A stretch of DNA of 64,000 bases from contig JBBPIR010000001.1 in assembly GCA_038040195.1 (NCBI GenBank), positions 489,141 to 553,140 on the forward strand. Reading direction: 5' to 3'. Source of the DNA: Chloroflexota bacterium. GTDB taxonomy: Bacteria; Chloroflexota; Limnocylindria; QHBO01. The notes beneath the pieces are model-generated. The model did not search any database. It was not told the DNA's origin and worked only from the letters and a program-made list of their open reading frames with translations. The translations under genes were made by a program, and so were the position numbers. This document shows, piece by piece, positions 3,425-22,004 of this stretch. The stretch's first letter is position 1. Every line of letters starts with the position of its first letter.

Positions 3425-3447
3425 CCCCCGCCCGCCAGGGTTGGCGC

Positions 3448-4185: not shown

Positions 4186-4237
4186 GGCCCGATCTTACGC
4201 GGCCCGGGCACCCTTCACGCTTCGCCCGCGTGCTGGG

Positions 4238-4504: not shown

Positions 4505-4529
4505 GTCTCCACTCCCTTCGGTTTGCCGG

Positions 4530-4742
4530 TCAGCCGAGAGATCGGATCACCCACGCGCTCGGGGCGGGGGCGGGTGGCTCTTCAGCCGGAGGTGCGGTCG
4601 TTCCGCCCCCGCTGCCACCCAAGAGGAAGTACCACACGATGAAGCCGATGACCAGGATCGCCACGACAAGCCCGACGATCATGCCGGCTCCGTAGCCACC
4701 TGACGAGCCATCGCTCGGAACGTTGACGTTCGTCTGTCCCAT
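4530..4742 (-). CDS. small hypothetical membrane protein
   Basis: 70 aa, single TM helix flanked by Gly/Pro-rich tails; no recognisable family. Confidence 0.3.
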   Translation of the reverse strand: MGQTNVNVPSDGSSGGYGAGMIVGLVVAILVIGFIVWYFLLGGSGGGTTAPPAEEPPAPAPSAWVIRSLG

Positions 4743-4896
4743 GGGCCGATAAACCTCCGTGCTCTGGGGCGACTGGTGTCGGAACTAACGCCCGTGAGAT
4801 CATCGAGTGGGACGCTGGCTTCGTCAAGCCCTTAGGTCCCTCCTGAGCACGGGTAAAGATGCAAACTGCAAGGATGCAAACCGGATTGAGGACGAG

Positions 4897-5745
4897 ATGA
4901 CCTTCGAGCCAGGCGCGCGCCTCGACCCCGGGCAGGTCCGTGACGTGCGAGGCAAGGGAGGCGTGCTGGCGGTCGGGGGTGGCATCGGCGGCGTGATTCT
5001 GCTGGTTCTCTTTGTCGCGCTGGGCGGCGACCCGTCCCAGCTGCCGCCGGGGCTGCTCGAGGGCCAGACGGTCGGCACCGGCCAAGAGAGTGACCTGACG
5101 GAGGAATGCCAGACGGGGGCGGATGCCAACCTGCGCGACGACTGCCGCATCGTCGGCTACGTGAACAGCGTCCAGGCCTACTGGACTGAGGCCGTGGACG
5201 GCTATACCCCGGCCCTGACCACGTTCTTCACCCAGGCGGTCAACACGGGCTGCGGCACGGCCTCGAGCGCGGTCGGCCCCTTCTACTGCCCGCCTGACGA
5301 GAGCGTCTACATCGACCTCGGCTTCTTCGACCAGCTGGAGACCCGCTTCGGCGCCGAAGGTGGGCCCTTCGCCGAGGCGTACGTCATCGCGCACGAGTAC
5401 GGCCACCATATCCAGAACCTGCTCGGGGACCTCCAGCCTGGCGGAGGAACGGGTGCCGAGAGCCATGCGGTGCGCACCGAGCTCCAGGCCGACTGCTACG
5501 CGGGGGTGTGGGCCAGCAATGCGGTTGAAACGGGCTACCTGGAGCCGATCACGCCTGAGCAGGTCGCCCAGGCGCTCGACGCCGCCTCAGCCATCGGCGA
5601 CGATCGGATCCAGGAGCAGACGCAGGGACAGGTGAACCCCGAGACCTGGACGCACGGCTCGTCCGAGCAGCGTCAGGCGTGGTTCCGCGTCGGGCTCGAC
5701 AGCGGCGACCCGAACGACTGCGACACGTTCAGCGCCGACATCTAA
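4897..5745 (+). CDS. neutral zinc metallopeptidase (YpfJ/PF04228-like)
   Basis: HEYGHH (HExxH) zinc motif, N-terminal TM anchor; start placed at ATG 4897 ([10 protein letters not shown]) within longer track ORF 4807..5745. Confidence 0.7.
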
Positions 5746-5765
5746 CTGAGTAGCCGCCCTCGACC

Positions 5766-5800
5766 GATGAGCAGAAGGCCCTGCTCGTCGAGCGCTTCCG
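5766..5800. terminator. candidate bidirectional terminator hairpin between convergent genes
   Basis: imperfect inverted repeat ctcgaccgatgagcag...ctgctcgtcgag located between stop of metallopeptidase (+) and stop of prk (-). Confidence 0.25.
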
Positions 5801-5809
5801 GCAGTGGGT

Positions 5810-6805
5810 TCAGCCGCTCGCCGCCGCCGAGGCCGCGGAGGCTCCGAACGTCAACCCGCGCTCCAAGCCGGCCTGCACGACCTGATAGGCGATGAGGAGT
5901 TGCGTGAGCGCCAGCGGGTCGGAGTGCCGCTCCACGCTGCCGTCGAGGTAACTGCCGATCTCCCCGGGACGGAGGTGACGATGCGTCTCCATGTGCGCCC
6001 AGATTCGCTCATCGAGCTCGAGAGAGCGTGAGGGCGAAACCGCTCCGTCGATCTCCAGGATGGAAGCGCCCGTAGCGTCCGCCTCCTGCTCGAGGCGAAT
6101 CGGGGGTGGCTCGTCCGCGGCGGCGCTCGCCAACACGTCGCCGAGGTCGAGCCGAGGAAGCCCAGGGCCGAGCCTGAGACGCACGTTCAGATGGGCGTCG
6201 TGATCGACGGCGGTTCCGGCCCGGAAATAGCCGGCCGGTGGGTAGAACTGGACGAGCATATCGGCGTACGCGCGCTGGGGTGCGAGGTACCGCCGATGGT
6301 CATCGCGCCTGTCGACGATCTGGCGGATGACTTCCGGCACGCTGTATCCGCGCTCCGCGCAGTCCCGCTTAACCTTCCAGGCCCACTTCAGCTCCTCCTG
6401 CGGCTGCAGCCACACGCGAACATCAAACGCGTTTCGCAGGTTCGCGGTCATCAGCGGAAAGAGGCCGCGGATGACGACGATCTCGCGCGGCTCGACATCC
6501 TCGCGCTGGCCGAAGGTCCCCGTCGAGTGGTCATAAGTTGGCTTCGAGATGGTCTCGCCGCGTGCAACAGCGGCGACCTGTCGCGCCATGAGCTCAATGT
6601 CGTTCGCGGCCGGGTTGAGGGCGGTCACGCCGAGCCGCTTGCGCTCTGCTCGGTCCAGCTTGTGGTAATCGTCGAGGCACAGGTTGGTGATCCGCTCCGC
6701 GCCGAAGATCCGATACAGGCCCCTGACCAGCGTCGTCTTGCCGCTGCCGCTGTCGCCTCCCACGGCCACCATGATCGGGCGATGGAAGTTCGTCGCCGCC
6801 ATCAA
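5810..6805 (-). CDS. prk: phosphoribulokinase
   Basis: 331 aa; P-loop GDSGSGKTT; strong similarity along length to cyanobacterial/bacterial PRK (ICLDDYH, ISKPTYDH, KWAWKVKRDCAERGYS); immediately downstream of rbcL on same strand. Confidence 0.85.
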   Translation of the reverse strand: MMAATNFHRPIMVAVGGDSGSGKTTLVRGLYRIFGAERITNLCLDDYHKLDRAERKRLGVTALNPAANDIELMARQVAAVARGETISKPTYDHSTGTFGQREDVEPREIVVIRGLFPLMTANLRNAFDVRVWLQPQEELKWAWKVKRDCAERGYSVPEVIRQIVDRRDDHRRYLAPQRAYADMLVQFYPPAGYFRAGTAVDHDAHLNVRLRLGPGLPRLDLGDVLASAAADEPPPIRLEQEADATGASILEIDGAVSPSRSLELDERIWAHMETHRHLRPGEIGSYLDGSVERHSDPLALTQLLIAYQVVQAGLERGLTFGASAASAAASG

Positions 6806-8143
6806 TCAGAACCTCACGCCCGACCACAGGTCGAGCGCCTGGCGCAATTCGGGGCAGGTACGCGCCGCGTGCGCGAGCGTCTGCCCGGCGGCCACCGCCT
6901 CCACCGCAACCCGCGCGGCGGTGGCACCGGCCCGGCTGCCGCCCGGATGGCCGTGCACGCCTCCACCGAACAGGAAGAAGGCGTCCGTCCCGAAGACCTC
7001 GTCGAGCTGGGGAACGTGGCCCGGGTGCAACCCGCCTGAGGCGACGGGAACCAGGGGCTTGAGCTCGCCCCAGGCCTGGTCGAACAGCGTCCCACCCCCG
7101 GCCGGCGCGAACGCGGCGGTCATCATTCGACGCCGCTCGCCCATCTCCTGGATGGTTCCCTCCAGCTTCCCGACCCCGGTGCCGACGTGGACGTGGTCCG
7201 CGCCCATCAGCCGCGCCCACTTGGCGATGACCAAGAAGTCCACGCCGTGGTCGGGGTGGCGATCCATCACCGCATGCATCGCCCGATGCGCGTGCAGCGC
7301 CAGGCCCAGCCGCTCGGTCTCCGCACGCAGCGACGCAGTCGCCGCGAAACCCGCCGTCAGGAAGTCGACCATCACGAACCGGCCGCCCTCGTCGGCCACC
7401 AGGTTGGCGCGGCGAAGCATCTCGCTGGTCTCGGCGGCGGTGACGTTGGCCCAATAGCCCTTGCGCTCCCCGGTCTCGGCCTCCGCGCGTTGCACGAGCT
7501 CCAGTGTCCGCCGGATGCGCTCGTCGAACGGCGACCAAGCCTGACTGTTCAGGTTCTCGTCGTCCTTGACGGTGTCGATCCCGCCCCGCAGCGTCTCGTA
7601 GGCGCGCCGCGCATGCTCGGCGGGCGAGAGCCCCAGTTTGGGTTTGATGGTAGATCCGGTCATCGCCCGGCCATGAACGTTCAGCTTCTCCCGGACGCCG
7701 GAGATGCCGAACGCAGGCCCTGGGAACGATTCGACCAGGGGTAGGGGGATACGCATGTCGAGCAGGCGAAGCGCGCTCACCGCCTTGAACCCAAAAACGT
7801 TGCCCACCACGCTGGACAGGATGTTGGGGATGCTGCCGAACTCGAACAGGTCAATCGGGTACGCGATCAAGGCGACGTCGGCGGCGATCCGGTACACCCG
7901 CGCCCGGAGCTGGTAGGCCAGGCCCTCGTCATCCTCGCTCACCTCGGTCCAGGTCCCCGTCGAGGACTCGGCCGCCACCGCCGCCGCGGCCTCCTCCATC
8001 GAGGTGTCCTCACGCGGGGCGAGCTTGAACGCAACCAGCAAGTCAGTCGCGGCGGGAACGTAGTCGAGGGCCAGATACAGCTCTTGGTACGAATGAACCC
8101 CACTGGTCCGCTCAGGTCCCGTCTGCGTTGAAGGCTGGGTCAT
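6806..8143 (-). CDS. rbcL: ribulose-1,5-bisphosphate carboxylase/oxygenase large subunit, form III-like
   Basis: 445 aa; AAVAAESSTGTWT, catalytic TIKPKLGLS, carbamylation motif GGIDTVKDDENL, HAHRAMHAV, GKLEG loop 6, VASGGLHPG, FGGG; length and C-terminus resemble archaeal form III; no small subunit gene nearby. Confidence 0.85.
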   Translation of the reverse strand: MTQPSTQTGPERTSGVHSYQELYLALDYVPAATDLLVAFKLAPREDTSMEEAAAAVAAESSTGTWTEVSEDDEGLAYQLRARVYRIAADVALIAYPIDLFEFGSIPNILSSVVGNVFGFKAVSALRLLDMRIPLPLVESFPGPAFGISGVREKLNVHGRAMTGSTIKPKLGLSPAEHARRAYETLRGGIDTVKDDENLNSQAWSPFDERIRRTLELVQRAEAETGERKGYWANVTAAETSEMLRRANLVADEGGRFVMVDFLTAGFAATASLRAETERLGLALHAHRAMHAVMDRHPDHGVDFLVIAKWARLMGADHVHVGTGVGKLEGTIQEMGERRRMMTAAFAPAGGGTLFDQAWGELKPLVPVASGGLHPGHVPQLDEVFGTDAFFLFGGGVHGHPGGSRAGATAARVAVEAVAAGQTLAHAARTCPELRQALDLWSGVRF

Positions 8144-8413
8144 GGCACCGTGGCTCCCTCTTCGCTTCCCATCTCAGGCCTCCCTACACCTCCGCGGCCG
8201 CGTTGAATTATGGTCAGCCTGAGTGCCCTCGGCAGGTTCGAACAGGGCCGTTCGTACCGAAAACGCCCCGGCAACGAACCTTCGCGACACAGGATCAGCC
8301 GCACCGGCAGCCGTTGTCCAACCGCGCCGGCTCCGGTGGTGAGCGTCAACAGGGGCTCTGACCGAACAAACGGTCGAGGTCAAAGCCTTCTGGCCTGGCT
8401 TCGTGCTCGATGT

Positions 8414-8459
8414 TGGAGCCGAAGGTGGGATTCGAACCCACGACCGACGGTTTACGAAA
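8414..8459 (-). repeat. 46 bp tRNA-Thr 3'-half fragment (putative att site, direct repeat of 16386..16431)
   Basis: identical 46 nt to the 3' portion (anticodon loop to acceptor end) of tRNA-Thr at 16386..16460; no matching 5' acceptor strand upstream so not a complete tRNA. Confidence 0.7.
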
Positions 8460-8713
8460 TGCGGCCAGCTCCGTCCACTGGCGTCGTGTCATGCTCACTG
8501 AGAGTGGACGCCGCAGAATTGCCGTCCGCCGAAATCCGCAGGTAGCGCTCCCGTCCATCCCGTGGGGCGTCAGCAGGGGCGTCACCCGCTAGATGCAGCC
8601 CTGGAAACGTTGTCCAGGGCCTCGGCTGGGGCCGGCGGGACGAGAACTCCAGTCGGGCAACTGCGGGGAGTCTACGGGCGCCTTAAGGCGGGTGCCAGTT
8701 GGTGAGTGGGGTA

Positions 8714-8768
8714 GTAGACATAGCGGTCCGAAGTTGCCGGTAGCGCGGTATTGGTCAGAAGTTGCCGG
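8714..8768. repeat. two copies of a ~27 bp motif (GTAGACATAGCGGTCCGAAGTTGCCGG / GGTCAGAAGTTGCCGG) in island-boundary intergenic region
   Basis: near-identical motif recurs at 12668..12694. Confidence 0.5.
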
Positions 8769-8832
8769 CGCAGTCCGAGTCGCGCCACTCTCAGCGAGGA
8801 AGCTGGTACAGGATCCTGCCTCCGGGCAACGG

Positions 8833-10152
8833 TCAGGATGGTGGGTCCGGGGGTGCCGTCCGCACTGAGCCATCCGCCTCGTCGATGATGACCTCGAGCA
8901 TGGACCAGGCAACGCGGAGGGCCATCTCCACCGCAGCTGGACTCGCGGCCCGGGCGAACAGGAAGCCGAGGTACCGGTCACCTTCGGGGAGCGGAACGAG
9001 CGCCTCCCCGCGCGGGATCGTGATCGACAGGCCGTCGATGTTGGGGACGGCCCGGGCGGCCGACTGACCGCGAACCTCGCGAAGCCGCCCGGCGTGCCGG
9101 ATCGGGAGCATGAGGACGCCCGACGCGGACCGCTCGCGGTGGTGGGGCGGCAGGTCGAGGCCGGCGGCGTGGCGGAGGATGAGCTCCTCCAGGCTGACGC
9201 CGGCGCCGAATCGAAGGGTCCGAGCGCACAGCCCGCCGATCGAGCGAGCGGCGACCTCGAGGACCCACGCCCCCTCGTCGTTCAGGCGGACCTCGGCGTG
9301 GATCGGGCCTTCGCGAAGGCCGAGCGCCCGAGTGGCCAAGGCGGCGGTCGCCTCAACCTCGCGTCGTCGCTTCGGGGAGAGGCGCGACGGGGTAACGAAG
9401 AGAGTCTCTTCGAAGAACGGTCCGTCGAGCGGGTCGGGCTTGTCGAAGACCGCGAGGACCTCGAGCTCACCGGCGCGGAGCAGGCCTTCGATCGCCAACT
9501 CGACACCGGGAATGAAGTCCTCGACCAGGATCCCGGGGACGCGCGCAGGTTTGGCGGGCGCCGCGGGCTTGCCGACCGTGGCGGCGGTGGCGGCGGTCTC
9601 ATCGCAACCGAGGATTCGGGCAACCCGCCGGAAGGCGGCAACCAGCTCGGCCGGGTCGTTCGCCCGGATGACGCCCTGGCTCCCCGACCGATCGAGTGGC
9701 TTCACGACGCACGGGTAGCGGGTATCGGCCGCGAGCGCAGCGAGGGCGGCCGGGCCTGACGTGGCCGGATACGTTGCAAATCGTGGGGTCGGCAGACCGG
9801 CGGCCGCGAACGCCGTGCGGGCGTGCGCCTTGTCACGGCTCCGCTCGACCGCGGCCACCGAGTTGTGCGGCAGGCCGAGCCGTTCGGCTGCCGCGGCGGC
9901 CACTAGGGTCGACCCGTCGTCGACGCCGACGACGGCATCGAGCCGACGTTCGCGGGCGTACCGCTCGATCGTCGCGGCGCCCCGCTCGGCATCGTCGAGC
10001 TGGACACGGATCGTCCCAGCCCCGGCCACCGACTCGAGCACGTTCCGTCGCTCCGCCCCGACCACCACGTCCACCCCGAGCCGATCCGCAGCGGCGAGGA
10101 AGTCGGCCGTACGGTAGGTCCGCGTCGGGAGGAGCAGGAGGATCCGGGTCAT
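8833..10152 (-). CDS. ATP-grasp domain protein (carboxylate-amine ligase-like)
   Basis: 439 aa; ATP-grasp architecture (KAHARTAFAAAGLPTP, YPCVVKPLDRSGSQGV, EVAARSIGG); specific substrate unknown. Confidence 0.55.
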   Translation of the reverse strand: MTRILLLLPTRTYRTADFLAAADRLGVDVVVGAERRNVLESVAGAGTIRVQLDDAERGAATIERYARERRLDAVVGVDDGSTLVAAAAAERLGLPHNSVAAVERSRDKAHARTAFAAAGLPTPRFATYPATSGPAALAALAADTRYPCVVKPLDRSGSQGVIRANDPAELVAAFRRVARILGCDETAATAATVGKPAAPAKPARVPGILVEDFIPGVELAIEGLLRAGELEVLAVFDKPDPLDGPFFEETLFVTPSRLSPKRRREVEATAALATRALGLREGPIHAEVRLNDEGAWVLEVAARSIGGLCARTLRFGAGVSLEELILRHAAGLDLPPHHRERSASGVLMLPIRHAGRLREVRGQSAARAVPNIDGLSITIPRGEALVPLPEGDRYLGFLFARAASPAAVEMALRVAWSMLEVIIDEADGSVRTAPPDPPS

Positions 10153-10187
10153 GGCCGAATTCTGCGCCAGTTGTACGATTCAGCGAA

Positions 10188-10775
10188 ATGGACGCCCCGC
10201 TCCTGCTCATCACACGCGAGGCGCAGGCCAAGGTCGCGGCGGCCGCCAGGAGCGCCGGCTACCCCGACGCCCGGCTTCGCGTGGCGATTGCCGGTCGGCG
10301 CGGAGCGAGCTTCGCATATGACCTCTCTCTGGTTCGGCCGGACCGGGTCGACCCGGCGGACCTCGTCGTCGAGACCCCGCTCGGCGTCGTCTATGTCGCG
10401 GCTGCCGATGCCGAGCGACTGCGCGGCGCCACGATCGGCCTGGACGCCACCGTATCCGGCGGGGCGATCGCGATCGACAACCCGAACGTCGGCTGGACCG
10501 ATCCACTCGCCGTGCGGGTCCAGGAGGTACTCGACACGCAGGTCAATCCCGGCGTTGCCGCCCACGGCGGCTACATCGACCTCCTCGAGGTCCGGGACGG
10601 GACGGCCTACATCTCGATGGGCGGTGGATGCGTCGGCTGTGCCCAGGTGGACGTCACCCTCCGTCAAGGGGTGGAGGTTGCTATCAAGCGGTCCGTTCCC
10701 GAGATCGTCGCTATCGTCGACACCACCGACCACGCGTCGGGCACCAATCCCTACTACCAGTCCGCCAAGAAGTAG
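10188..10775 (+). CDS. Fe-S cluster assembly protein, HesB/IscA-like domain fused to NifU C-terminal (Nfu) domain (NfuA-like)
   Basis: start chosen at ATG 10188 (MDAPLLLITREAQ) inside longer track ORF; C-terminal Nfu motif GGGCVGC with GYIDLLEV. Confidence 0.55.
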   Translation: MDAPLLLITREAQAKVAAAARSAGYPDARLRVAIAGRRGASFAYDLSLVRPDRVDPADLVVETPLGVVYVAAADAERLRGATIGLDATVSGGAIAIDNPNVGWTDPLAVRVQEVLDTQVNPGVAAHGGYIDLLEVRDGTAYISMGGGCVGCAQVDVTLRQGVEVAIKRSVPEIVAIVDTTDHASGTNPYYQSAKK

Positions 10776-10899
10776 GGATGAGCATCACGCACTTCCTCGA
10801 TGGCGACTAGCCGATTCGTGCGCGTTGACACTGTCGTGGGATTGACCGTGACGACATGATTGCGCCCGGCACGGCCGGCCTCGGAGAGCTGGCGACCGT

Positions 10900-12654
10900 A
10901 TGAGCCCCAGACCAGAGAGCCGCACGCGCCCGTGCAACGTCCTGGTCATCGGGACCGGCGGGGCCGGCCTCAGAGCTGCGATTGCGGCCCGCCAGGCCGG
11001 TGTCGACGTGGTGGTCATCGGCAAGCGGAGCCGACTGGATGCCCATACCGTGCTCGCCGCCGGCGGTATCAACGCGGCGCTTGGCACCGTCGACCCGGAG
11101 GACTCATGGCAGCAGCATTTCGCCGACACCATGCGAGAGGGCTATTACCTGAGCGACCCGCGCGTCGTCGAGATCATGACCAGCGAGGCACCGCTGGCAA
11201 TCAATGAGCTCGCTGAGTGGGGCTGCCCATTCGCGCGCACCGACGACGGCAAGCTTGACCAACGCTACTTCGGCGCCCACACGTTTCGGCGCACGTGCTA
11301 CGCCGGGGACTACACCGGGCGAGCCGTCCTGTCTACCCTGGCCGAACAGGTGCAGAAGCTCGATATCCCGGTGATCGAAGACCAGTACGTCTCGCGCCTG
11401 CTCACCGCCGACAGCCAGTGCTTTGGTGCGCTTGCCTTCGATCTCCACACCGGGGATCGCACGGTCTTTGAGGCCGACGCAGTCGTCCTGTGCGGCGGCG
11501 GGCATACGCGCATCTGGCGTCGCAGCTCGTCGCGGCGCGACGAGAACTACGGCGAGGGCATGTGGCTGGCCTTCCAGGCCGGGGCGCGCCTGATGGACAT
11601 GGAGCTCGTCCAGTTCCATCCCACCGGGATGCTGCTGCCGGAGGAGGCCGCCGGCACGCTGGTCACCGAGGCCGTGCGCGGCGAAGGCGGGCGACTGTAC
11701 AACGCCGAAGGCGAGCGCTTCATGCAGCGCTACGACCCCCAGCGGATGGAGCTGAGCAGCCGCGACCGCATCGCCCTGGCCAACTACACCGAGATCCAGG
11801 AAGGCCGGGGCGGCCCCAACGGCGGCGTCTTCCTCGACGTGACCCACCTGGGCAAGGACGTGATCCTGGAAAAGCTGCCGCGGATGTACCGCCAGTTCGT
11901 GGAGTATCAGATGCTCGACATTGCCAAAGAGCCCATGGAGGTCGCGCCCACGGCGCACTACTCGATGGGCGGGATCGTGGTCGATCCGCCGACCCACGCC
12001 ACCGACGTTGGCGGACTGTACGCCGCCGGCGAATGCACGGCGGGACTGCACGGTGCCAACCGGCTGGGTGGCAACTCGCTGGTGGAGACTCTGGTGTTCG
12101 GTCGGCGCGCCGGTGAGGCAGCGGCGCGATCTTCGCTGGAGCGCGAATCGCGGCTTCGCTCCAAACAAGTCACCGACGAGGCACACGCCGACCTCGACAG
12201 GCTGATCGACAACGGTACCGAGCTCAGCCGGGCCCTGCAGCGCGCGGTCCGCAACATCATGTGGGAGCACTGCGGCGTGGTGCGCGAAGCCAGCGACATG
12301 GAGCGGGCACTCGGCATGCTGGACGAGGTCCGCTCAGCGCTGCCGAGCGTCGACGTGCGCCCCAGCGAAGAGGGATGGGGCGACCTGGCCCACGTCCTCG
12401 ACGTCCAGGCCATGCTGGGCACCGCCGAAGCCACCCTGCGGGGGGCGATCGCGCGCGAAGAGAGCCGTGGTGCGCACAACCGTTCGGACTTCCCGGAGCT
12501 GGATCCGGCGATGGAGGTCAATTTCATCGTCGGGCGCGGCAGTGACGCCCGGATGGCGCTGGAACCCGCACCCGTTCCGGCGGTCTCCGTGGAGCTCCGA
12601 TCGTGGCTCGCGCGAGCGGGGAATATCGACCCCGCGGGGCGGCTTCTAGAATGA
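10900..12654 (+). CDS. succinate dehydrogenase/fumarate reductase flavoprotein-subunit family FAD oxidoreductase (orphan)
   Basis: 584 aa; VLVIGTGGAGLRAA, covalent-FAD type His in DAHTVLAAGG, RGEGG, HYSMGGI, RLGGNSL; no adjacent Fe-S or membrane subunit. Confidence 0.7.
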   Translation: MSPRPESRTRPCNVLVIGTGGAGLRAAIAARQAGVDVVVIGKRSRLDAHTVLAAGGINAALGTVDPEDSWQQHFADTMREGYYLSDPRVVEIMTSEAPLAINELAEWGCPFARTDDGKLDQRYFGAHTFRRTCYAGDYTGRAVLSTLAEQVQKLDIPVIEDQYVSRLLTADSQCFGALAFDLHTGDRTVFEADAVVLCGGGHTRIWRRSSSRRDENYGEGMWLAFQAGARLMDMELVQFHPTGMLLPEEAAGTLVTEAVRGEGGRLYNAEGERFMQRYDPQRMELSSRDRIALANYTEIQEGRGGPNGGVFLDVTHLGKDVILEKLPRMYRQFVEYQMLDIAKEPMEVAPTAHYSMGGIVVDPPTHATDVGGLYAAGECTAGLHGANRLGGNSLVETLVFGRRAGEAAARSSLERESRLRSKQVTDEAHADLDRLIDNGTELSRALQRAVRNIMWEHCGVVREASDMERALGMLDEVRSALPSVDVRPSEEGWGDLAHVLDVQAMLGTAEATLRGAIAREESRGAHNRSDFPELDPAMEVNFIVGRGSDARMALEPAPVPAVSVELRSWLARAGNIDPAGRLLE

Positions 12655-12667
12655 CGCGCTCGCGTAG

Positions 12668-12694
12668 GTAGATAGAGCGGTCCGAAGTTACCGG
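12668..12694. repeat. third copy of ~27 bp motif (GTAGATAGAGCGGTCCGAAGTTACCGG) upstream of GH130 gene
   Basis: matches 8714..8740 at 24/27 positions. Confidence 0.5.
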
Positions 12695-12738
12695 ACTTCG
12701 TCGAACCCGCCGACCGAGCCGGTCTAGACTCACTGCCA

Positions 12739-13710
12739 ATGTCCTCCGGCCGCGCCCTTTTCACGCGCTTTCCCGGTAATCCGATCATTCGTGCAGCCGA
12801 CCTTCCCTACGACGCGAACGCGGTCTTCAACCCGGGCGCAGCCGAGGTCAACGGTGAGACCGTCCTTCTCCTTCGCGTGGAGGACCTCCGCGGCATCAGC
12901 CACCTCACCGTTGCCCGCAGCCGGGACGGGGTCAGCGACTGGCGAATCAACAGTGAGCCGAGCTTGCGCTCCGCCCCGGTGCGGTACCCGGAGGAGGTGT
13001 GGGGCATCGAGGATCCGCGGCTGACGTGGCTTGAGGAGATGCAGGCCTGGGTGATCGCCTACACCGCCTACAGCCGGCGCGGCCCGCTCGTCTCCTTTGC
13101 ACGCACGGCCGACTTCCGATCCTTCCGGAGGTTTGGCGCGGCGCTTCTGCCGGAGGACAAGGACGCCGCCCTGTTTCCGCGGCGATTCGGCGGCCGATGG
13201 GCGGTCATCCACCGTCCGACGCCGGTGCACGGGAACGCGAGCATGTGGATCTCCTATTCGCCCGACCTACGCCACTGGGGCGATTTCAGCCTGCTCCTCG
13301 AGCCACGCGAGGGCGCGTGGTGGGACTCGGCCAAGATCGGGCTGGGACCCCCGCCGCTGGAGACCCCCGAGGGCTGGTTGGTCATGTACCACGGTAGTCA
13401 TCTCACGGCCAGCGGCGCCCTGTACCGGACTGGGCTCGCCCTGCTCGATCTCGAGGACCCCAGGACCGTCCTGCGACGCAGCGACGAATGGGTGATCGGG
13501 CCGACTGAGCCCTATGAGCGGGTCGGCGACGTGGGCGGCGTCGTCTTCCCGTGCGGCTGGGTGCTGCATCGGGCGACCAACGAGCTCCGCGTGTACTACG
13601 GCGCAGCCGATACGTCCGTCGCGCTCGCCACCGCGCGCCTGGACGATGTGCTCGAGTACCTGCGCAGCTCCCCCCGGCCGACGCCGCAGAGGCGCCGGGT
13701 GCGCCTCTAG
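12739..13710 (+). CDS. glycoside hydrolase family 130 (mannoside phosphorylase-like)
   Basis: 323 aa; GH130 five-bladed propeller signatures NPGAAEVNGETVLLLRVED, IEDPRL, FPCGWV. Confidence 0.7.
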   Translation: MSSGRALFTRFPGNPIIRAADLPYDANAVFNPGAAEVNGETVLLLRVEDLRGISHLTVARSRDGVSDWRINSEPSLRSAPVRYPEEVWGIEDPRLTWLEEMQAWVIAYTAYSRRGPLVSFARTADFRSFRRFGAALLPEDKDAALFPRRFGGRWAVIHRPTPVHGNASMWISYSPDLRHWGDFSLLLEPREGAWWDSAKIGLGPPPLETPEGWLVMYHGSHLTASGALYRTGLALLDLEDPRTVLRRSDEWVIGPTEPYERVGDVGGVVFPCGWVLHRATNELRVYYGAADTSVALATARLDDVLEYLRSSPRPTPQRRRVRL

Positions 13711-16091
13711 CGGGCGACCTTCACGGCCGCCTGCAGGCCACGCAGGCTAGCGGGTGCCTGCCGAACCTCGCGGATCCGTTCCACGGCCAGCAGCCACGCG
13801 AGCGTCGACTCGGCGCCGCAGTTCGCGTTCACCCCATACGGACCCAGCCCGTCGTGGCAGGCTCCGGCCTGCGGGACGGCCAACGCCAGCCCGAGATGAT
13901 TCTCGCCGAGGAACCACGCGTAGGCGCGCTCCATGTCGTCCAGCCAGCGGGCATCACCGGTCACGATCAGGGCAGCGCGAGCGGCCTCCAGCAGCGACGT
14001 CGCTTCGATCGGCTGCTGGTCGAAGGACGCCGGGCGCCCACCACGGGGCCACCAGCCGCGGTTCCCGATGGGGACCAGGTGTCCGTCGGCGTCCGTCTGC
14101 GCGGCGAGCAGCCAGTCCAGCAGGCGGGCGCCGAGCTCGACCCAGCGGTCCTGGTTCAGCAAGTCGCCGGCGCTGAGGAGCGCCTGCGGCAGGGTCCCGT
14201 TGTCGTAGGTCACCGTCGCCTCTGGCCATGGCCAATCGGCAGTTGCAGGCGGGATGGATGCCGCCAGCGTTGTGGTGAGGCTCGCGAGCGATTGCCGCAG
14301 CGCTGGGCTCCCCGCAGAACGCAGGGCGGCCGCGCAGCCTAGGATCGCGTAGCAGCGTGGCCGGAGGTGAGCGAAGGCCAGCGCAGCCGGCAGGGCGGTG
14401 GTGAAGAGCTTCGACGCCAGGCGACGCGCCACATGGTCGTCGGAGCGGGCCAGGAACTCCCCGAGCGCCTGCAACGCGCGGCCGTGGCAGTCCTCGGAGC
14501 CGATCCGTTCAAGCCACACACCATCGGCACTCCGGAGGTTCCGGAAGCGTCCCGCCGCTGGGTCATAGGCGTCATCCAGAAAGCGCAGCGATCGGTGAAT
14601 CGAGGCCGTCACCGCTGGCCCTGGAGCCTGCTCCGCGTGGAGCAGATCCACCACCAGGGCACGCGCCACGTCATCGGTGCAGGTGCCGTGGCGCGGATCG
14701 GCAGTTTCGCCAATCGCATGCTGCCAGATCCCGCGCCCGGTCCCCAGGCGGGAAAGATGATGCCGTTCGATCCGCGGGAGGACCCGCGCCGGCAGAGTCT
14801 TGGCGGTGACGCGACCGTCAGACCGGGCGGCCTCTGGCCCGATCATCTGGACCGGTCGCAGCGCATGGCGCGCTTCGCCGGCCACCTGGGAGAAGATTGC
14901 CCGGTAGCCGTCGCCGACGGCGTCCCAACTCATGTCGGCGGCCAGCGCGCGTGCGCGGTTCCCGATTTTCTGCCGCTCAACGGGATGGGTGAGGAGCGCG
15001 AACAGCCGGTCGGCGAGCGCCTCGACGTCGTCGAATGGAAACAGGACCCCGCGGCCGTCGGCGAGGAGCTCCCGCGCGTACTCGTAGGGTGTCGAGATGC
15101 ACGCTCGACCGGCGGCCACGGCATATGCCAGCGTCCCCGAGGCAGCCTGCTCGGCGTTCCCGTACGGGGTGACGAAGAGGTCCGCGGCCTGCAGCCAGGC
15201 CACCAGCTCGTTGTCATCGACGTAGCGATCCACGAACAGGAGGTGACGCTCGAGGCCGAGCGCCTGCGCCCGCGCAGCGAGGGCAGCGCGATAGCGTTCC
15301 CCGTTTCGGAGCCGCACCTCTGGGTGCGTGGCACCGACGATCGCGAATCGAGTCTGTGGGACACGATCGCGGATTCTGGCGAGGGCATCGATCACCAATT
15401 CGAGGCGCTTGGCTGGACCAAGCAGGCCGAACGAAAGGATGAGAGGCCCTTCTGGCAAGCCGAGGCGGGCCCGTGCCTCGGCTGGGTCGACTATCTCGAT
15501 CTGCGGTACGCCGTGGGGAATGACCTGCAATGCATCGGACGGGGCCTCGTATTCGGTGCTGAGCAGGTGCCGCGCACGTTCGCTCATTACCACGACACGC
15601 GCCGATCGCCGCACCAGCTCGACGAGGATGGCGCGCTGGAGCGGTGTGGGATGGGGGCGGACCGTGTGCAGGGTGGTGACGAGGGGCACCCGCAACGCCG
15701 CCGCGAGCCCGAGGACGTGACGGCCGGATGGGCCACCGAATATGCCGTACTCGTGCTGGAGCGAGACGACCTCGGTACCAGCGACGGCCAGGTGGGCGGC
15801 GGCGGCGACATACGCCTCGGCGTCGGAGCGCTTCAGGCGGAAGGTGACCTCGGGCGGATACCGGGGCGGGTCCCGGCGGCCGCGGTCTACCGCGACCACC
15901 AGCGGTGTGCGCGCGCCCGGCGGTGTGAGATCTACCAGTGCGTCGCGCAGGTCACGCGTGAAGGTGGCGATCCCGCAACGCCGAGGCGGATAGGTCCCTA
16001 CCAAGGCCAGGGCCGGAAGGTCCTGCCACGTCGCGGTCATCCTCACCTCCCGGCGCGGGCACAGCAGGTGTCGCGGATGGAGCGACGCCAT
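13707..16091 (-). CDS. GT4 glycosyltransferase fused to ~390 aa C-terminal glycosidase-like domain
   Basis: 794 aa; N-terminal GT4 (GIATFTRDL, C-terminal EQAASGTLAYAVAAGRACISTPY with E-x7-E); C-terminal half Trp/Ala-rich, alpha-helical, unassigned. Confidence 0.55.
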   Translation of the reverse strand: MASLHPRHLLCPRREVRMTATWQDLPALALVGTYPPRRCGIATFTRDLRDALVDLTPPGARTPLVVAVDRGRRDPPRYPPEVTFRLKRSDAEAYVAAAAHLAVAGTEVVSLQHEYGIFGGPSGRHVLGLAAALRVPLVTTLHTVRPHPTPLQRAILVELVRRSARVVVMSERARHLLSTEYEAPSDALQVIPHGVPQIEIVDPAEARARLGLPEGPLILSFGLLGPAKRLELVIDALARIRDRVPQTRFAIVGATHPEVRLRNGERYRAALAARAQALGLERHLLFVDRYVDDNELVAWLQAADLFVTPYGNAEQAASGTLAYAVAAGRACISTPYEYARELLADGRGVLFPFDDVEALADRLFALLTHPVERQKIGNRARALAADMSWDAVGDGYRAIFSQVAGEARHALRPVQMIGPEAARSDGRVTAKTLPARVLPRIERHHLSRLGTGRGIWQHAIGETADPRHGTCTDDVARALVVDLLHAEQAPGPAVTASIHRSLRFLDDAYDPAAGRFRNLRSADGVWLERIGSEDCHGRALQALGEFLARSDDHVARRLASKLFTTALPAALAFAHLRPRCYAILGCAAALRSAGSPALRQSLASLTTTLAASIPPATADWPWPEATVTYDNGTLPQALLSAGDLLNQDRWVELGARLLDWLLAAQTDADGHLVPIGNRGWWPRGGRPASFDQQPIEATSLLEAARAALIVTGDARWLDDMERAYAWFLGENHLGLALAVPQAGACHDGLGPYGVNANCGAESTLAWLLAVERIREVRQAPASLRGLQAAVKVAR

Positions 16092-16385
16092 GCCCGGCCC
16101 TGATGGCTGCGACGACCACGTGCATCAGCAGAGATCGTGGACCTGAGCAGCGGGGTCCGGATCTGCGAACACGCGTCGCGGCTGCACGTGCTCATGGAGC
16201 TGCGCAACTTGAGCGGGCCCCGTCGCGGGGCCTCGTGGTAGCACCCGATGGTATCGCCGGCGGTGGCCGCGGGTCAAATCGCCGCATTCGCGGCGAGCCG
16301 GCGTTCAGGTCGCAGCCGGGGCGTCAAACCGAACAGACGATCGCGCCTCCGATTCGTGAGCGGGGCAACTTCGTGCTCAGAAGAC

Positions 16386-16460
16386 TGGAGCCGAAGGTGG
16401 GATTCGAACCCACGACCGACGGTTTACGAAACCGTTGCTCTACCCCTGAGCTACTTCGGC
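16386..16460 (-). tRNA. tRNA-Thr (anticodon CGT)
   Basis: manual fold: acceptor GCCGAAG/CTTCGGC, D arm GCTC-AGGGGTA-GAGC, anticodon arm ACGGT-TTCGTAA-ACCGT, T arm GTGGG-TTCGAAT-CCCAC, discriminator T, encoded CCA. Confidence 0.8.
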
Positions 16461-17339
16461 CCGATCGCCGGCCGATTTTAGCGCCTCTCCCTTTGCGCTC
16501 CCCAACCTGACCGAGGGCGGCGCCCAGCCGTGGAGCAGCTCGTCGTGGTAGCGCGGCCCGCGCTCCAGCGAACGGGGAATGGGGGCCATCCGCGCCTTTC
16601 CGCGCTGGACCAGGGCGAAGTACGGGCACAGGTCGGTGAGCGGGCACAGGCCGCAGATGGGGCGCGGGGCGCGGCACACCTCCCGCCCGTGGCGTATGAG
16701 CAGCACGTGCCCGGCGTACATGGCCTCGGGCGGCACCACTTCCTCCAGCAGGTCGTGGGCCCGGGTCAGGTCGGTCTTGGGCGGGAGCAGGCCCAGCCGG
16801 GAGGCGACTCGATAGACGTGGGTGTCGACCGGCAGCGCGGGCCGGCCGAACGCGAACAGGAGCACGATCGATGCCGTCTTGCGCCCAATCCCGGGCAGGC
16901 CCACCAGCCACTCGCGGGCCCGCTCGAGCGGCCACTCCCGCAGGTACCCGAGGTCCCAGGTCCCGTTCGTGGCGTCGTGGACCTCGGCCAGAACGAGCTG
17001 GATGCGGCGGGACTTGGTTGGGGCCAGCCCGCCGGGCCGGATGACGTCTGCCAGTTCGTCGGTCGGCGCAGCCAGCACGGCGTCCCACGACGGGTAGGCA
17101 GCCCGCAGGGCCACGAAGGCGCGGTGCGAATTCGTGTCGGCCGTGTTCTGGGCCAGCACGGTCAGGACCAGCTCCGCGACGGGGTCCAGCCGCGGACCGG
17201 ACCAGACCGGCATTCCGTATCGGTCAGCCAGGCGTTCCAGGATGGGACGGATGCGCGCGCGCCGCACGCGGCGCAGCGCGGCCAGCCGGCGGCGGTTGAC
17301 CCGCGATCGCACCCTGCGAGGTCGTGCGGCGTCCGTCAC
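16440..17339 (-). CDS. nth: endonuclease III family DNA glycosylase (HhH-GPD, 4Fe-4S)
   Basis: HhH motif LVGLPGIGRKTASIVLLFAF, catalytic D in PVDTHVYRV, Fe-S loop CRAPRPICGLCPLTDLCP; start uncertain (GTG 17339 chosen; track ORF extends to 17537); 3' end overlaps tRNA. Confidence 0.6.
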   Translation of the reverse strand: MTDAARPRRVRSRVNRRRLAALRRVRRARIRPILERLADRYGMPVWSGPRLDPVAELVLTVLAQNTADTNSHRAFVALRAAYPSWDAVLAAPTDELADVIRPGGLAPTKSRRIQLVLAEVHDATNGTWDLGYLREWPLERAREWLVGLPGIGRKTASIVLLFAFGRPALPVDTHVYRVASRLGLLPPKTDLTRAHDLLEEVVPPEAMYAGHVLLIRHGREVCRAPRPICGLCPLTDLCPYFALVQRGKARMAPIPRSLERGPRYHDELLHGWAPPSVRLGSAKGEALKSAGDRAEVAQG

Positions 17340-17624
17340 GCGGCTCCCAGCCTCGCGGTCTCGCGGGCATACCCGGCCCAGGCCCCGGCTCCGAGTCGCG
17401 AGGCCTGGCCCAGGTCGACGATCCGACCCCGACCATCCTGCCGCGTGGCCCACGCGTCCGCGTGGTCGGGTGAGCAGAGCAGCACGGTTGGGGTGCAGAA
17501 CTCGGCCCTCAAGTCCGTTCCGCCGGCGGCCAACCACAGGCGCTGGGGTGGCTCGGCCTCGGCCCCGATCGGTACCCGGAGCGTGAATGCGGTGCGCCGC
17601 ACGATCTCGTCGACGTCTCGCACG

Positions 17625-18800
17625 TTAGCCTCGGCTCCCCAATCCCTGACCGATGTCGATGCTGCGCGCCAACCGGGCAGCCGCATTGGCCAGCAGGCGT
17701 TCGGTGTCGGCCATGGCGATTTCCAGGCCGAGTGGTCGATCGATGATGGGCTGCACCACGGCGAACGCCCCCGACTCCTCGACGATCTCGGCGCCTGGGC
17801 CCAGGCCGCCGCACAGCAGGACGACCGGGGCATTGCCGGCATGATGGGCCACCCCCAGCGCCGCCTTGCCGGCCAGGGTCTGCTCGTCGGCCCGCCCCTC
17901 CCCGGTGATGACCAGGTCCGCCCCCTCGCAGGCCGCCGCCAGGCCCACCAGGTCGGCCACGACCTCCACGCCGGAGCGCAGCTCGGCGGAGGTGAAGCCC
18001 AGCAGCCCGGCCGTTGTCCCGCCGGCCGCGCCGGCGCCTCGGACCTCCGCCACGTCGCGACCCGTCGCTCGTCGGATCTCGGCTCCCCAGCGCACCAGGG
18101 CCTCGTCCAGCTCGGCGACGGCGTCGGGGTCCGCGCCCTTCTGCGGCCCGTAGCTCGCGGCTGCGCCGTTCGGCCCGGTCAGGGGGTTGGTGACGTCGGA
18201 AGCGATCAGGATCTCGACCTCGGCCAGCCGCGGATCGAGCCCGTCGGCGTCGACGTGGTCCAACGTCGCCAGGGCCGCGCCGCCGTCCGGCACCTGGCCC
18301 CCGCGGGCGTCGAGCAGCCGGAGCCCCATCTCGACCAGCAGCCCCGCCCCGCCATCGGTGGTGGCCGATCCGCCAAGGCCAACCACGATCCGTCCCGTGC
18401 CGGCATCCAGCGCCGCCGCGATGAGCCGTCCCGACCCCCGGGTCGTGGCCAACCGAGCACTGGTCGACGTCCGCTCCGCCAAGGCCAGCCGCGCCAGCCC
18501 GCTGGCCGCCGCCATCTCCACGAACCCCGTTGCACCGCCGTCGAGCGCCAGCCAGTCCGCGCTGATCGGCCGGCCCAGGGGATCGGTCGTCATCACCGTG
18601 TTCCGGGTGGCCGCGCTTCCCCGAGCTGCGGCGATCGCGGCCAGGGTCCCCTCGCCCCCGTCCGCCATCGGGATCTTCACCACCACATCGTCGGGCCGCG
18701 CCGAGGCCCAGCCGCGGGCCATGGCCTCGGCGACCGCCACCGAGTCCAGCGCACCCCCGAACGAGTCGGGAGCCACGACCACGCGCAGCGGCGGGCTCAT
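17625..18800 (-). CDS. glycerate kinase (GlxK/GarK family)
   Basis: 391 aa; VVAPDSFGGAL N-terminus and Gly-rich GLGGSATTDGGAG motifs. Confidence 0.8.
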   Translation of the reverse strand: MSPPLRVVVAPDSFGGALDSVAVAEAMARGWASARPDDVVVKIPMADGGEGTLAAIAAARGSAATRNTVMTTDPLGRPISADWLALDGGATGFVEMAAASGLARLALAERTSTSARLATTRGSGRLIAAALDAGTGRIVVGLGGSATTDGGAGLLVEMGLRLLDARGGQVPDGGAALATLDHVDADGLDPRLAEVEILIASDVTNPLTGPNGAAASYGPQKGADPDAVAELDEALVRWGAEIRRATGRDVAEVRGAGAAGGTTAGLLGFTSAELRSGVEVVADLVGLAAACEGADLVITGEGRADEQTLAGKAALGVAHHAGNAPVVLLCGGLGPGAEIVEESGAFAVVQPIIDRPLGLEIAMADTERLLANAAARLARSIDIGQGLGSRG

Positions 18801-20707
18801 CGGGAAAGCTCCTTGCGCCTCGCGAGGTAGGCGGGGATCGTGTTCATCGGCGGTCGAATCTCGTCCCCCACCTCGCGGACCTCCAGGCTGAATTTGTCAC
18901 CTTCCTGGCGGATCTGCTTCATCCGCTCGCCCATGTCGGTCAGCAGCTCAATCCGCTGACGCTCCTCCAGCTTGGTGATCCCGGCCTTGAGGATGACAAA
19001 GGCCATCCGCGACAGGTCCAGCAGCGACTGGTTGCGATGGATGCGGCGCTCGAGGTCGACCTGCCCGATGCCGGACAGGCCGACGCGGTCCAGGATGTCG
19101 ATGAGCAGCCCGATCTCGACCGCGTAGCCGGTGAAGAACGGCACCGACTCGAGGAGCGCGCGACGCCCCGCGTACTCCCCGGCCAGGGGTTGGATGATGC
19201 CGGACAGCTCGGGGAAGAACAGGTTGATGAGCGGGCGAGCGGTCAGCTCTGTCACCCGTCCGCCCTCGTCGGGCTGGCGCCGCCCGCCAGCCGTCAGGGG
19301 CCGTTGGTAGAAGGCCTTCACGTAGTGGATCCGCGACTCGCGCAGGAGCGGGCCCAGCAGGCCGTACACGAAGCGAGGCTGGATGTTGCGGATGTCGGTG
19401 TCGACCCAGACCACGATGTCCCCGCGCAGCTCGTACAGGCTCTTCCACAGCGCTTCGCCCTTGCCGACGTGGCTCCCCAGCTCCGGGAGGATGGTGTCGT
19501 GCTGGCGGACGGGTGCCCCCAGCTCGCGGGCGATCTCCACCGTTCGGTCGGTGGAGGCCGAGTCGATGACGAGCAGCTCGTCCACCAACGGCACGCGGTC
19601 CATGAGCGCATCGCGAATGCGACGGATGACCAGCCCGATGGTCTTCTCTTCGTTCAGGGTCGGTAGTCCCACGCTGATGGTCAGGCCCTGGCGCTCCTTG
19701 AGGTCCACCAGGCGCTTGAGGTCGCGAAATTCGCTGGTGTCGAACGTGTTCTCGGCAAACCAGCGGTCGACCACGCTCGGCAGGCTGCGGGTCTGCTCGA
19801 TGGCGGCGTCCGCGGCGGGCAGGCTTCCGGTCTCGGCCCGGAGATGTTCGAAGGTGACTGCGGTGAACGGTTGTCGGGTCTTGACCACCATCACGGTTGG
19901 CTTGGCGCGGCTGGCGACTGTCTCCGCCAGCCGCCCGAACAGGCGCCGGCCCGATCCGGCTCCGGTCGGCTGGGCAGAGGCCCCGACCACAACCAGGTCG
20001 TGGTTCGCGGCCTCTTGCAGGATGGCGCCCCGAACGGTCGGCGCCTCCACCAGCAGCTGGCGGACCTTGACCCCTCGGGTATTACGCCTGACCAGGCGGC
20101 CAAGCGCCGCCCGCTCGTCCTCGAGCGCGGCCGAGCCACCCTCGGGCGGGACCACGTGCAGAACGACCAGCTCAGCGCCGAAGCCGCGCGCCAGGTCGGT
20201 GGCCAGCGAGAGCGCCAGCTCGGCATTCGGACCTCCCCGAACCGGGACCAGGATGGAGCGGACGGTTCCCAGTGCGCGCTGCTTGACCACGGCGATATCG
20301 CATGGGGCCTCACGGACGACCTGGTCAATGGTGGTCGAGAAGACCGCGTGCCGCAGGCCGGTCGGTTGGGGGCCGCCCCAGCCGAAGACCACCAGGTCGG
20401 CCCCGATCTCGGCCACCGCCTCCACGATCCCCTCCGACGCCTGGCGGCCGATGCGGACCGCGGTATGGACCTCGACCGACGCGTCGTCCCGGAAGTCAGG
20501 CACCCGCTGGAGCAGGCGGCGGGCCTGGCGCGCGCGGCTGGCGCCCTCCGCCAGCGACACGCCCTCGGGGACCTCGACGATGCCCAGCGCGGTGATCTCG
20601 GTGGGCCGCCGGTGGGCGAGGTGGGAACCGATGCGGATCAGGTCGCGCGCGGTGCGCGGGTTGGCCAGCGGCATGAGGACCCGATACGGACCACGCCGGC
20701 GGGCCAT
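18797..20707 (-). CDS. tandem universal stress protein (UspA) domains fused to glucosyl-3-phosphoglycerate synthase-like GT-A glycosyltransferase
   Basis: 636 aa; two USP-like halves (LVVFGWGG, LVVVGAS); C-terminal GT-A domain ISVGLPTLNEEKTI, LVIDSASTDRT, WVDTDIRN (DxD) resembling GpgS/MpgS; 4 nt overlaps with both neighbours. Confidence 0.55.
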   Translation of the reverse strand: MARRRGPYRVLMPLANPRTARDLIRIGSHLAHRRPTEITALGIVEVPEGVSLAEGASRARQARRLLQRVPDFRDDASVEVHTAVRIGRQASEGIVEAVAEIGADLVVFGWGGPQPTGLRHAVFSTTIDQVVREAPCDIAVVKQRALGTVRSILVPVRGGPNAELALSLATDLARGFGAELVVLHVVPPEGGSAALEDERAALGRLVRRNTRGVKVRQLLVEAPTVRGAILQEAANHDLVVVGASAQPTGAGSGRRLFGRLAETVASRAKPTVMVVKTRQPFTAVTFEHLRAETGSLPAADAAIEQTRSLPSVVDRWFAENTFDTSEFRDLKRLVDLKERQGLTISVGLPTLNEEKTIGLVIRRIRDALMDRVPLVDELLVIDSASTDRTVEIARELGAPVRQHDTILPELGSHVGKGEALWKSLYELRGDIVVWVDTDIRNIQPRFVYGLLGPLLRESRIHYVKAFYQRPLTAGGRRQPDEGGRVTELTARPLINLFFPELSGIIQPLAGEYAGRRALLESVPFFTGYAVEIGLLIDILDRVGLSGIGQVDLERRIHRNQSLLDLSRMAFVILKAGITKLEERQRIELLTDMGERMKQIRQEGDKFSLEVREVGDEIRPPMNTIPAYLARRKELSR

Positions 20708-21939: not shown

Positions 21940-22004
21940 GAGGTCCGCCTGGCCGACCCCCCGCACTGCGGACCGACCGCGCGCATCGAGGGCGGAGGCG
22001 ACGC

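Follow-up and report, generated by a model that had tools for sequence, protein, structure and literature searches.

A probable integrative island without a recognisable integrase at the tRNA-Thr(CGU) gene of an uncultured Limnocylindria bacterium

Introduction

A 64 kb stretch of contig JBBPIR010000001.1 (hereafter the window, by which the whole analysed stretch is meant) from Candidatus Limnocylindria (Chloroflexota), an uncultured soil bacterium, harbors one intact tRNA-Thr(CGU) gene and, 7.97 kb away, a second exact copy of the 3' part of this gene. The segment of ~8 kb between the two copies (8460-16385) encodes an ATP-grasp ligase, an NfuA-like protein, an SdhA-like flavoprotein, a GH130 glycoside phosphorylase and a GT4 glycosyltransferase fusion protein. 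It probably results from an integrative insertion at the anticodon loop of the tRNA gene, the integrase module having later been lost or acting in trans. The segment is thus best regarded as a decayed or trans-dependent integrative island of a known kind, resembling the cis-mobilizable elements (CIMEs). Islands at tRNA genes are textbook knowledge, examples that lack an integrase of their own have been described, and to our knowledge no mobile elements have been characterised in the class Limnocylindria. Loci and contigs of other genomes are designated by L numbers in the following.

A tRNA-Thr gene and a displaced copy of its 3' part

The tRNA-Thr(CGU) gene is the single tRNA that ARAGORN called in the window, and it reached 73.5 bits in Rfam. 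Its last 46 nt (TGGAGCCGAAGGTGGGATTCGAACCCACGACCGACGGTTTACGAAA) are present in two exact copies at 8414-8459 and 16386-16431, which constitute the longest direct repeat within 7000-18000. A search allowing up to three mismatches returned these two matches, compared to none in each of 100 shuffled sequences; the two-copy repeat is not explained by chance. It covers tRNA positions 30-75, i.e. it starts at the final 5'-arm base of the anticodon stem, runs through the loop to the encoded CCA and stops at the gene end. At the left copy, no tRNA was called by ARAGORN, only a sub-threshold tRNA-like match was obtained in Rfam, and the sequence upstream of it shows no likeness to a tRNA 5' half (score of 16 versus a null mean of 16.2). 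A preliminary description of this DNA, made from the letters alone, had reported precisely this constellation of an intact gene, an exact 46-nt repeat and a missing 5' half, which is borne out in all three respects.

In four sequencing runs, short Logan contigs of this strain break inside both 46-mers, at ~8443 and ~16404, as expected of a genuine two-copy repeat. Together with the k=127 contig L004, which spans the junction from the tRNA to the GT4 fusion gene, these breaks indicate that the repeat is not an artefact of one assembly.

No further tRNA fragments were found in the window. Three candidates were discarded: a 15-nt tRNA match (5350-5364) is part of the ZnPep coding sequence with a background-level score, a presumed decayed core upstream of rbcL (8144-8330) scored under the null mean, and a core-like scar in the spacer between the PRK and ZnPep genes (5746-5809; P ~0.04) is not claimed, the region having been picked post hoc.

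The same locus in related genomes

The gene order on the 5' side of the tRNA (DEAD helicase, ligase, MGS-like glycosyltransferase, Usp-GT2, glycerate kinase, HhH-GPD glycosylase, tRNA-Thr) is syntenic in ~30 relatives. On the 3' side, every close relative is different, and each junction is located at the tRNA end. The closest one, L004 (~96% nucleotide identity), possesses the trailer and the segment as in the window with the SdhA gene absent, and its contig ends before the left junction. In L005 and L006 (90-95% identity), the tRNA is followed by 21-44 nt and the stop codon of ZnPep, with neither segment nor rbcL-PRK. In L007 (~80% identity), 100 nt separate the tRNA from rbcL-PRK. As the segment is present in L004 and missing from L005-L007, it is an insertion/deletion polymorphism anchored at the tRNA 3' end. 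Within the segment, the divergence between L004 and the window equals that of the flanks, and the segment was already in place in their common ancestor. The empty tRNA-Thr site for which the preliminary description had looked to relatives was consequently found in part: L005, L006 and L007 lack the segment as expected of an island site, but the site in L007 is not base-precise.

Several other rearrangements were observed at this locus. The SdhA-like gene corresponds to a clean insertion or deletion of 1.9 kb (window 10779-12682 versus L004 14567-14599) that begins 4 nt past the stop codon of the NfuA-like gene and ends within a repeated 18-mer. Where contig L004 reaches window position 9346, it reverses and continues (16027-17531) with a second, inverted copy of the ATP-grasp and NfuA genes that is 88% identical to the window; either a true inverted duplication has diverged here, or the assembly is a chimera of strains. 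Between the HhH-GPD gene and the tRNA, i.e. 5' of the latter, 1-8.5 kb of extra DNA is found in L008, L009, L015, L017, L023, L027 and L029, that of L017 carrying a gene for a GmrSD-like nuclease; the locus is thus variable on both sides of the tRNA. ZnPep is intact in the window and L006, and L005 (12770-13218) holds a truncated pseudogene in which the equivalent of window 4269-5327 is deleted and the stop codon lost. Finally, L032 contains an inverted, near full-length tRNA-Thr pseudogene with a destroyed T-arm (16236-16305, minus strand). Its trailer is that of the intact L032 tRNA at 12034-12108, so that it represents an inverted segmental duplication and hence another type of event than the one that gave rise to the 3' fragments.

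A conserved att-like unit around the core

Each copy of the 46-nt core is followed on the tRNA strand by a trailer (Table 1). The boxes of the tRNA trailer recur at matching offsets in L004, L017 and L020/L191, where L191 is an extension of L020. Both window trailers have in common CGAGCACGAA at +5 to +16, GTTCGGT at ~+50 and 9-mers resembling TGACGCCCC. They are ~65% identical, and a local alignment restricted to the trailers is marginal (P ~0.03); the significance of their likeness derives from its recurrence in other genomes. The degenerate trailer of the distal core is not present in L007. Owing to this trailer, one detail of the preliminary description has to be corrected, according to which the upstream region of rbcL directly abuts the repeat: ~145 nt of trailer-like sequence lie in between.

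With a profile built from core and trailer, the full unit was detected after an intact tRNA in the window, L004, L017 and L020 only. Stand-alone fragments comprise the left copy of the window, two in L017 (20714-20750 and 20936-20985), two in L191 and one in L085, and all of them start at tRNA positions 28-31. The fragments in L017, L191 and L085 also bear the boxes of the trailer. Exact copies of the 9-mer TGACGCCCC occur just three times in the 64 kb, all on the tRNA strand and just inside the segment ends. One is part of the tRNA trailer, and the other two form a pair near the left core, which could represent P-arm-like repeats or equally the trailer of an older unit. The distance from this pair to the core is the same as that from the corresponding pair to fragment 2 in L017. 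Two 9-mers 12 nt apart at exactly +60/+72 were found in L017 (twice) and L020, and unit 2 of L191 contains them at +60/+72/+84. These four units stem from three genera; the window's tRNA trailer holds the +60 copy.

In lambda-type attP sites, a core crossover region is flanked by arm-type integrase sites, i.e. short direct repeats at fixed distances. The layout observed here (repeat pair, 105 nt, core, 60 nt, repeat pair) would be attP-like, with TGACGCCCC at +60/+72 and -105/-117 as counted to the ends nearest the core, and the 9-mers may thus be regarded as putative arm-type integrase sites. The window differs from lambda attP in that its trailer may in part be native tRNA flank or terminator. 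The trailer was also considered as a structured RNA and dismissed: its consensus fold has -4.6 kcal/mol and lacks a favourable covariation term, and nothing but the tRNA was found by Rfam.

Cargo bounded by the unit in other genomes

The 7.5 kb enclosed by the tRNA and fragment 1 in L017 contain genes for a response-regulator/cyclase and for a GAF hybrid kinase of 1900 amino acids, and no integrase was found in this interval. In L191, 12.2 kb with a GC content of 0.60-0.69, compared to 0.71-0.75 in the flanks, lie between two identical copies of a 47-nt repeat at 6000-6046 and 18225-18271; a third, decayed copy is located at 16874-16920. A type I restriction-modification system in fragments and a HEPN-like gene are found in this island together with a tyrosine integrase that is both frameshifted and truncated and whose reconstructed N-terminus matches Phage_int_SAM_3 with 29.5 bits (cutoff 22.6). 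The island has the architecture of the window locus and may reflect use of the same att site by an integrase-bearing element; no intact integrase was found. The fragment in L085 adjoins ordinary genes. Thus, at least one case of this site architecture comes with foreign DNA and a tyrosine-integrase remnant, and at least two come with ordinary cargo that lacks a recombinase. The cargo of the window and that of L017 have no gene in common, which rules out an unrecognised recombinase shared by both. The reading of the repeats as att sites, already put forward in the preliminary description, is supported by the relatives without the segment as well as by the fragment-plus-trailer unit that bounds other cargo in L017 and L020/L191.

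Search for a recombinase

No recombinase or excisionase domain was detected by Pfam in the open reading frames (ORFs) of the segment, including the C-terminal half of the GT4 fusion. Likewise, masked six-frame peptides of the boundary intergenic regions and of unannotated ORF parts contained no recombinase relics, none of the other non-respiratory genes of the window encodes a recombinase, and motif scans detected none either. The lack of a recombinase in the segment noted from the letters alone is hence confirmed, and the remnants that a six-frame search might have revealed did not turn up. Of the ensuing proposal that the element is decayed or relies on a recombinase in trans, the first premise holds, as there is no recombinase here, and either of its two options may apply. 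By the same token, the segment does not qualify as a self-mobile integrative element.

When 186 loci were scanned for recombinase motifs, the sole matches were a Xer-like protein (L044) and an integron-like, unrelated integrase (L161). Used as a homology query, the L191 integrase N-terminus retrieved one short match with no genomic context. Viral contigs scanned for the att unit contained none; the core pattern matched phage tRNA arrays only, and matches to the 9-mer pair in these contigs were rejected because they lie inside coding regions at chance frequency. The L161 contig, which had been taken in via an ATP-grasp homologue, encodes a tyrosine recombinase of 392 amino acids preceded by three direct repeats of ~126 nt at a spacing of 1.1-1.3 kb (125-4417). 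These repeats share the 19-mer CCGCGGTCAACCCGAAGGG, and the arrangement resembles a cassette array of the integron type, with no relation to the tRNA site.

Origin of the cargo and the neighbouring rbcL-PRK block

Homologues of the GT4 fusion form one cluster at 97% identity, followed by orthologues at ~60-62% across the Chloroflexota. A gap of this size is close to the divergence that the flanking housekeeping genes show from genus to genus. The pair of convergent GT4 fusion and GH130 genes is kept elsewhere in three genomes. In L187 (9828-13299) and L188 (9786-13299), it is located ~100 nt after a tRNA-Asn(GTT) gene downstream of dnaG-rpoD, and no repeats of tRNA-Asn fragments were found in either. 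In L190, the pair lies beside cyclase and GAF-kinase genes, with no tRNA within 22 kb. These neighbours (L190 10001-20357) resemble the cargo of L017 (13482-20633), the response-regulator/cyclase being 91% and the GAF kinase ~86% identical, so that one block is found in two genomic contexts in close relatives. A leader of the GT4 fusion conserved in L187, L188 and L190 is missing in the window. A metagenome scan with the ATP-grasp protein gave no close relative (identity of at most 61%), and its homologues were never linked to other cargo genes, so that the segment is not a conserved cassette. The cargo is thus a mosaic of clade-typical metabolic genes that are differently placed in different lineages, rather than foreign DNA. 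Such a mosaic explains why a compositional signal is missing.

To the left of the segment, RbcL is directly followed by PRK (5810-8143, minus strand) with no small-subunit gene beside them. Single-subunit form-I-like RuBisCOs have been reported in this lineage (bioRxiv 10.1101/2021.08.23.457424), and the window matches them in gene arrangement. The rbcL-PRK block is found in the window and L007, in each case immediately on the side of tRNA-Thr, and is missing from the closer relatives L005 and L006; no repeat specific to the block was detected.

Proposed mechanism and alternative explanations

The probable course of events starts with the insertion of the segment into the tRNA-Thr(CGU) gene by site-specific recombination, with a crossover in the anticodon loop that would most likely be catalysed by a tyrosine integrase. 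The incoming DNA would have brought along a copy of tRNA positions 30-75 together with the conserved trailer. This copy may now complete the working tRNA, while the original 3' part would have been displaced by 7.97 kb to its present position. The element could be one of a family that uses the same tRNA throughout the class Limnocylindria. Subsequently, the integrase module would have been deleted, or the block would rely on an integrase encoded elsewhere in the manner of a CIME. We infer the part of a tyrosine integrase in the window's own insertion, as well as any present mobility of the element.

An island integrated into a tRNA gene should have an intact tRNA at its near end and, at the other end, a direct repeat of the 3' part of that tRNA, as is the case here (46/46). 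A number of observations nevertheless weigh against the insertion scenario. No element-encoded integrase is found beside the att site, and no intact integrase tied to the att unit was detected in 28 tRNA-Thr loci (to ~9 kb downstream), the window or the viral contigs; the sole integrase seen is the truncated remnant in the middle of the L191 island. L007 lacks the ~145 nt that follow the left 46-mer in the window and thus provides no precise empty site, and the left junction is known from the window's own assembly only. The trailer may partly be a native tRNA terminator or flank instead of an element arm, L005 retains one trailer box, and the 9-mer motif was noticed before being tested. Moreover, host-atypical composition as expected of such an island is absent. 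The GC content of the segment is flat, its codon usage is typical of the rest of the window and its tetranucleotide distance ranks 11th among 79 pieces of the same length. The compositional difference that the preliminary description had in view is accordingly not borne out, and the segment is not recently imported exotic DNA.

It is unlikely, though hardly far-fetched, that the att sites are genuine relics and the segment was gained here by homologous recombination, with no integrase acting in this genome. A relative's ready-made island could have been swapped in via the flanks, which are strongly conserved among relatives, or a circle carrying the unit could have entered by a RecA-mediated single crossover within the 46 nt. 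The compositionally native, clade-typical cargo, the failure to find an integrase, and the similar trailers, by which homology reaches slightly past the core, would all be in line with this route. Yet 46 nt are short for an efficient RecA crossover, and no donor genome with this cargo behind tRNA-Thr is seen except L004. Since the boundary in the anticodon loop still requires some past site-specific event, this explanation amounts to a variant of the integrative insertion favoured here. Somewhat less probable is a tRNA pseudogene that arose from a local or tandem duplication including a native trailer, with the 8 kb stemming from unrelated insertions or rearrangements. The locus is indeed a hot spot of rearrangement to either side of the tRNA, some relatives carrying inserts of 1-8 kb between HhH-GPD and tRNA genes, L032 possesses the inverted near full-length pseudogene, and the trailer possibly contains a terminator-like hairpin. 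In such a pseudogene, core and flanks should decay together, and a trailer reduced to ~65% identity should not leave a non-functional core at 46/46. This contrast fits a recently displaced true tRNA half beside arms of different origin, but not an old duplication. Nor is the boundary independent of a recombination position, as all fragments start at positions 28-31. The contrast between core and trailers is the strongest single point against a plain duplication, and it is joined by the five other fragments, which occur independently in three other lineages and share this start position. In addition, L191 has the same architecture around low-GC DNA and an integrase remnant, and the motif pair is also present on the inner, non-trailer side of the left core.

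A mis-join at the 46-nt repeat, by which for instance a free circular element and an unoccupied chromosomal site were merged, is highly improbable. The left junction from the ATP-grasp side via the 46-mer to rbcL is seen in the window only, and the Logan contigs break in both repeat copies, both of which would be in line with such an artefact. Reads of at least 100 nt span a 46-nt repeat, however, and L004, assembled with a k of 127 that exceeds 46, runs through from the HhH-GPD gene via tRNA and trailer to the GT4 fusion gene, so that the integrated right junction is real. Even in the case of a mis-join, the 46-mer would reside on two molecules, which would imply an active element.

Going beyond the insertion in the window, a clade-wide system is conceivable, albeit rather doubtful, in which a recombinase encoded elsewhere or by a helper repeatedly shuttles cargo-only modules at the anticodon loop of tRNA-Thr(CGU). 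Each module may then consist of a native gene block plus an att unit of ~220 nt (9-mer pair, 105 nt, core, 60 nt, 9-mer pair), somewhat reminiscent of the cassettes of integrons, with a tRNA gene as the site, and the adjacent rbcL-PRK genes, which lack a small-subunit gene, may have been shuffled likewise.

Relation to known systems and significance

Within the same phylum, the ssrA islands of Dehalococcoides provide the closest parallel in several respects. They likewise combine a small-RNA gene with a direct repeat of its 3' end and extra conserved sequence around the repeats; they form tandem arrays with metabolic cargo, and 15 of them have no integration module and have been put forward as cis-mobilizable (McMurdie et al. 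2011, PMC3146451). These islands differ in their target, the T-loop of the tmRNA gene ssrA, in their 20-bp repeat and in the serine integrase DsiB, whereas the site described here involves the anticodon loop of tRNA-Thr, a repeat of 46-47 nt, only a trace of a tyrosine-type enzyme and compositionally native cargo. CIMEs of Streptococcus ICE families are, as cited in PMC3146451, att-flanked regions without integration or transfer genes that are thought to be deletion derivatives of integrative elements and to depend for their movement on a helper integrating next to them. The window segment agrees with their structural definition (attL and attR, no recombination or transfer genes). Mobilisation of CIMEs by accretion has been demonstrated experimentally, while mobility of the present segment would be putative and no helper element was found. 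The tycheposons of Prochlorococcus insert repeatedly at tRNA genes, whereby older elements are moved further out (Hackl et al., bioRxiv 10.1101/2020.12.28.424599). Such arrays share scattered partial tRNAs, fragmented integrases and a predominance of cargo over intact elements with the family described here. A tycheposon by definition has its own tyrosine or serine recombinase and replication genes, none of which is present in the window segment, and the lineages are unrelated.

With these findings, a recurrent integration site and a conserved att unit are identified in a widespread class of uncultured soil and freshwater bacteria. Ordinary, compositionally native metabolic genes would be moved via this tRNA site, not just phage or defence DNA, and owing to their native composition such islands would be missed by composition-based island finders. 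The variably present rbcL-PRK genes beside the hot spot may be relevant to the spread and loss of CO2-fixation genes in this group. If a trans-acting integrase were found, the system could become a tractable model of cargo-only mobilisation.

Genes of the segment and its flanks

Genes were called on the basis of GC content at third codon positions (GC3) and Pfam; the domains found agree with the gene content given in the preliminary description. The genes for GH130 and the GT4 fusion are convergent and overlap by 4 nt. The ORF of the latter is open back to 16091; starting with residue 18, its product shares 97% identity with P0001, a protein of 777 aa. The C-terminal half of the GT4 fusion, a domain of unknown function, had no match in Pfam. 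A previously listed "orf194" (10149-10733, minus strand) proved to be an antisense artefact of the true NifU-domain gene on the opposite strand.

Table 1. Features of the tRNA-Thr(CGU) locus in the window
Feature	Position	Strand	Basis and remarks
PRK	5810-6805	-	Pfam
RbcL (445 aa)	6806-8143	-	Pfam; gene start 270 nt from left 46-mer
Degenerate trailer after distal core: CGAGCACGAAG box, TGTTCGGT, decayed motif pair	8323-8413	-	nhmmer 8459-8323, 109 bits
Distal core, probable displaced tRNA 3' part (positions 30-75) without 5' half	8414-8459	-	Exact repeat
Exact TGACGCCCC pair	8564-8584	-	12 nt start to start, 104-105 nt inside left core
ATP-grasp L-amino-acid-ligase-like enzyme	8833-10152	-	Pfam ATP-grasp_4, ATPgrasp_N, LAL_C2
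NfuA-like, NifU-domain protein (195 aa)	10188-10775	+	Pfam NifU, E = 3.9e-19; translation
SdhA/FrdA-like flavoprotein	10900-12654	+	Pfam FAD_binding_2, Succ_DH_flav_C
GH130 glycoside phosphorylase	12739-13710	+	Pfam Glyco_hydro_130, E = 6e-51
GT4 glycosyltransferase fusion (777 aa)	13707-16040	-	Pfam Glycos_transf_1, Glyco_transf_4
Conserved trailer after tRNA, putative P'-arm-like side	16288-16385	-	nhmmer 16431-16288, 114 bits
Box TGACGCCCC in tRNA trailer	16318-16326		+60 from tRNA end
Box AACCGAACA in tRNA trailer	16327-16335		
Box TGAGCACGAA in tRNA trailer	16370-16379		
Intact tRNA-Thr(CGU); 3' 46 nt (16386-16431) are the tRNA-proximal core	16386-16460	-	ARAGORN, Rfam, repeat search
HhH-GPD glycosylase, glycerate kinase, Usp-GT2, MGS-like glycosyltransferase, ligase, DEAD helicase	right of tRNA		

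Another repeat within the segment is the 18-mer GCGGTCCGAAGTTRCCGG, of which the 64 kb contain three copies (8723-8740, 8751-8768 and 12677-12694, plus strand; chance expectation of 0.34), all inside the segment. It extends up to 27 nt as GTAGAYAKAGCGGTCCGAAGTTRCCGG. One copy is situated upstream of GH130, where L004 has a similar sequence, and the 18-mer could belong to the cargo as a regulatory or repeat element. Genes of the sugar and compatible-solute type flank the tRNA on both sides (12739-22185), namely those for GH130 and the GT4 fusion inside the segment and those for glycerate kinase, Usp-GT2 and the mannosylglycerate-synthase-like (MGS-like) glycosyltransferase outside. The cargo may be functionally tied to the conserved flank.

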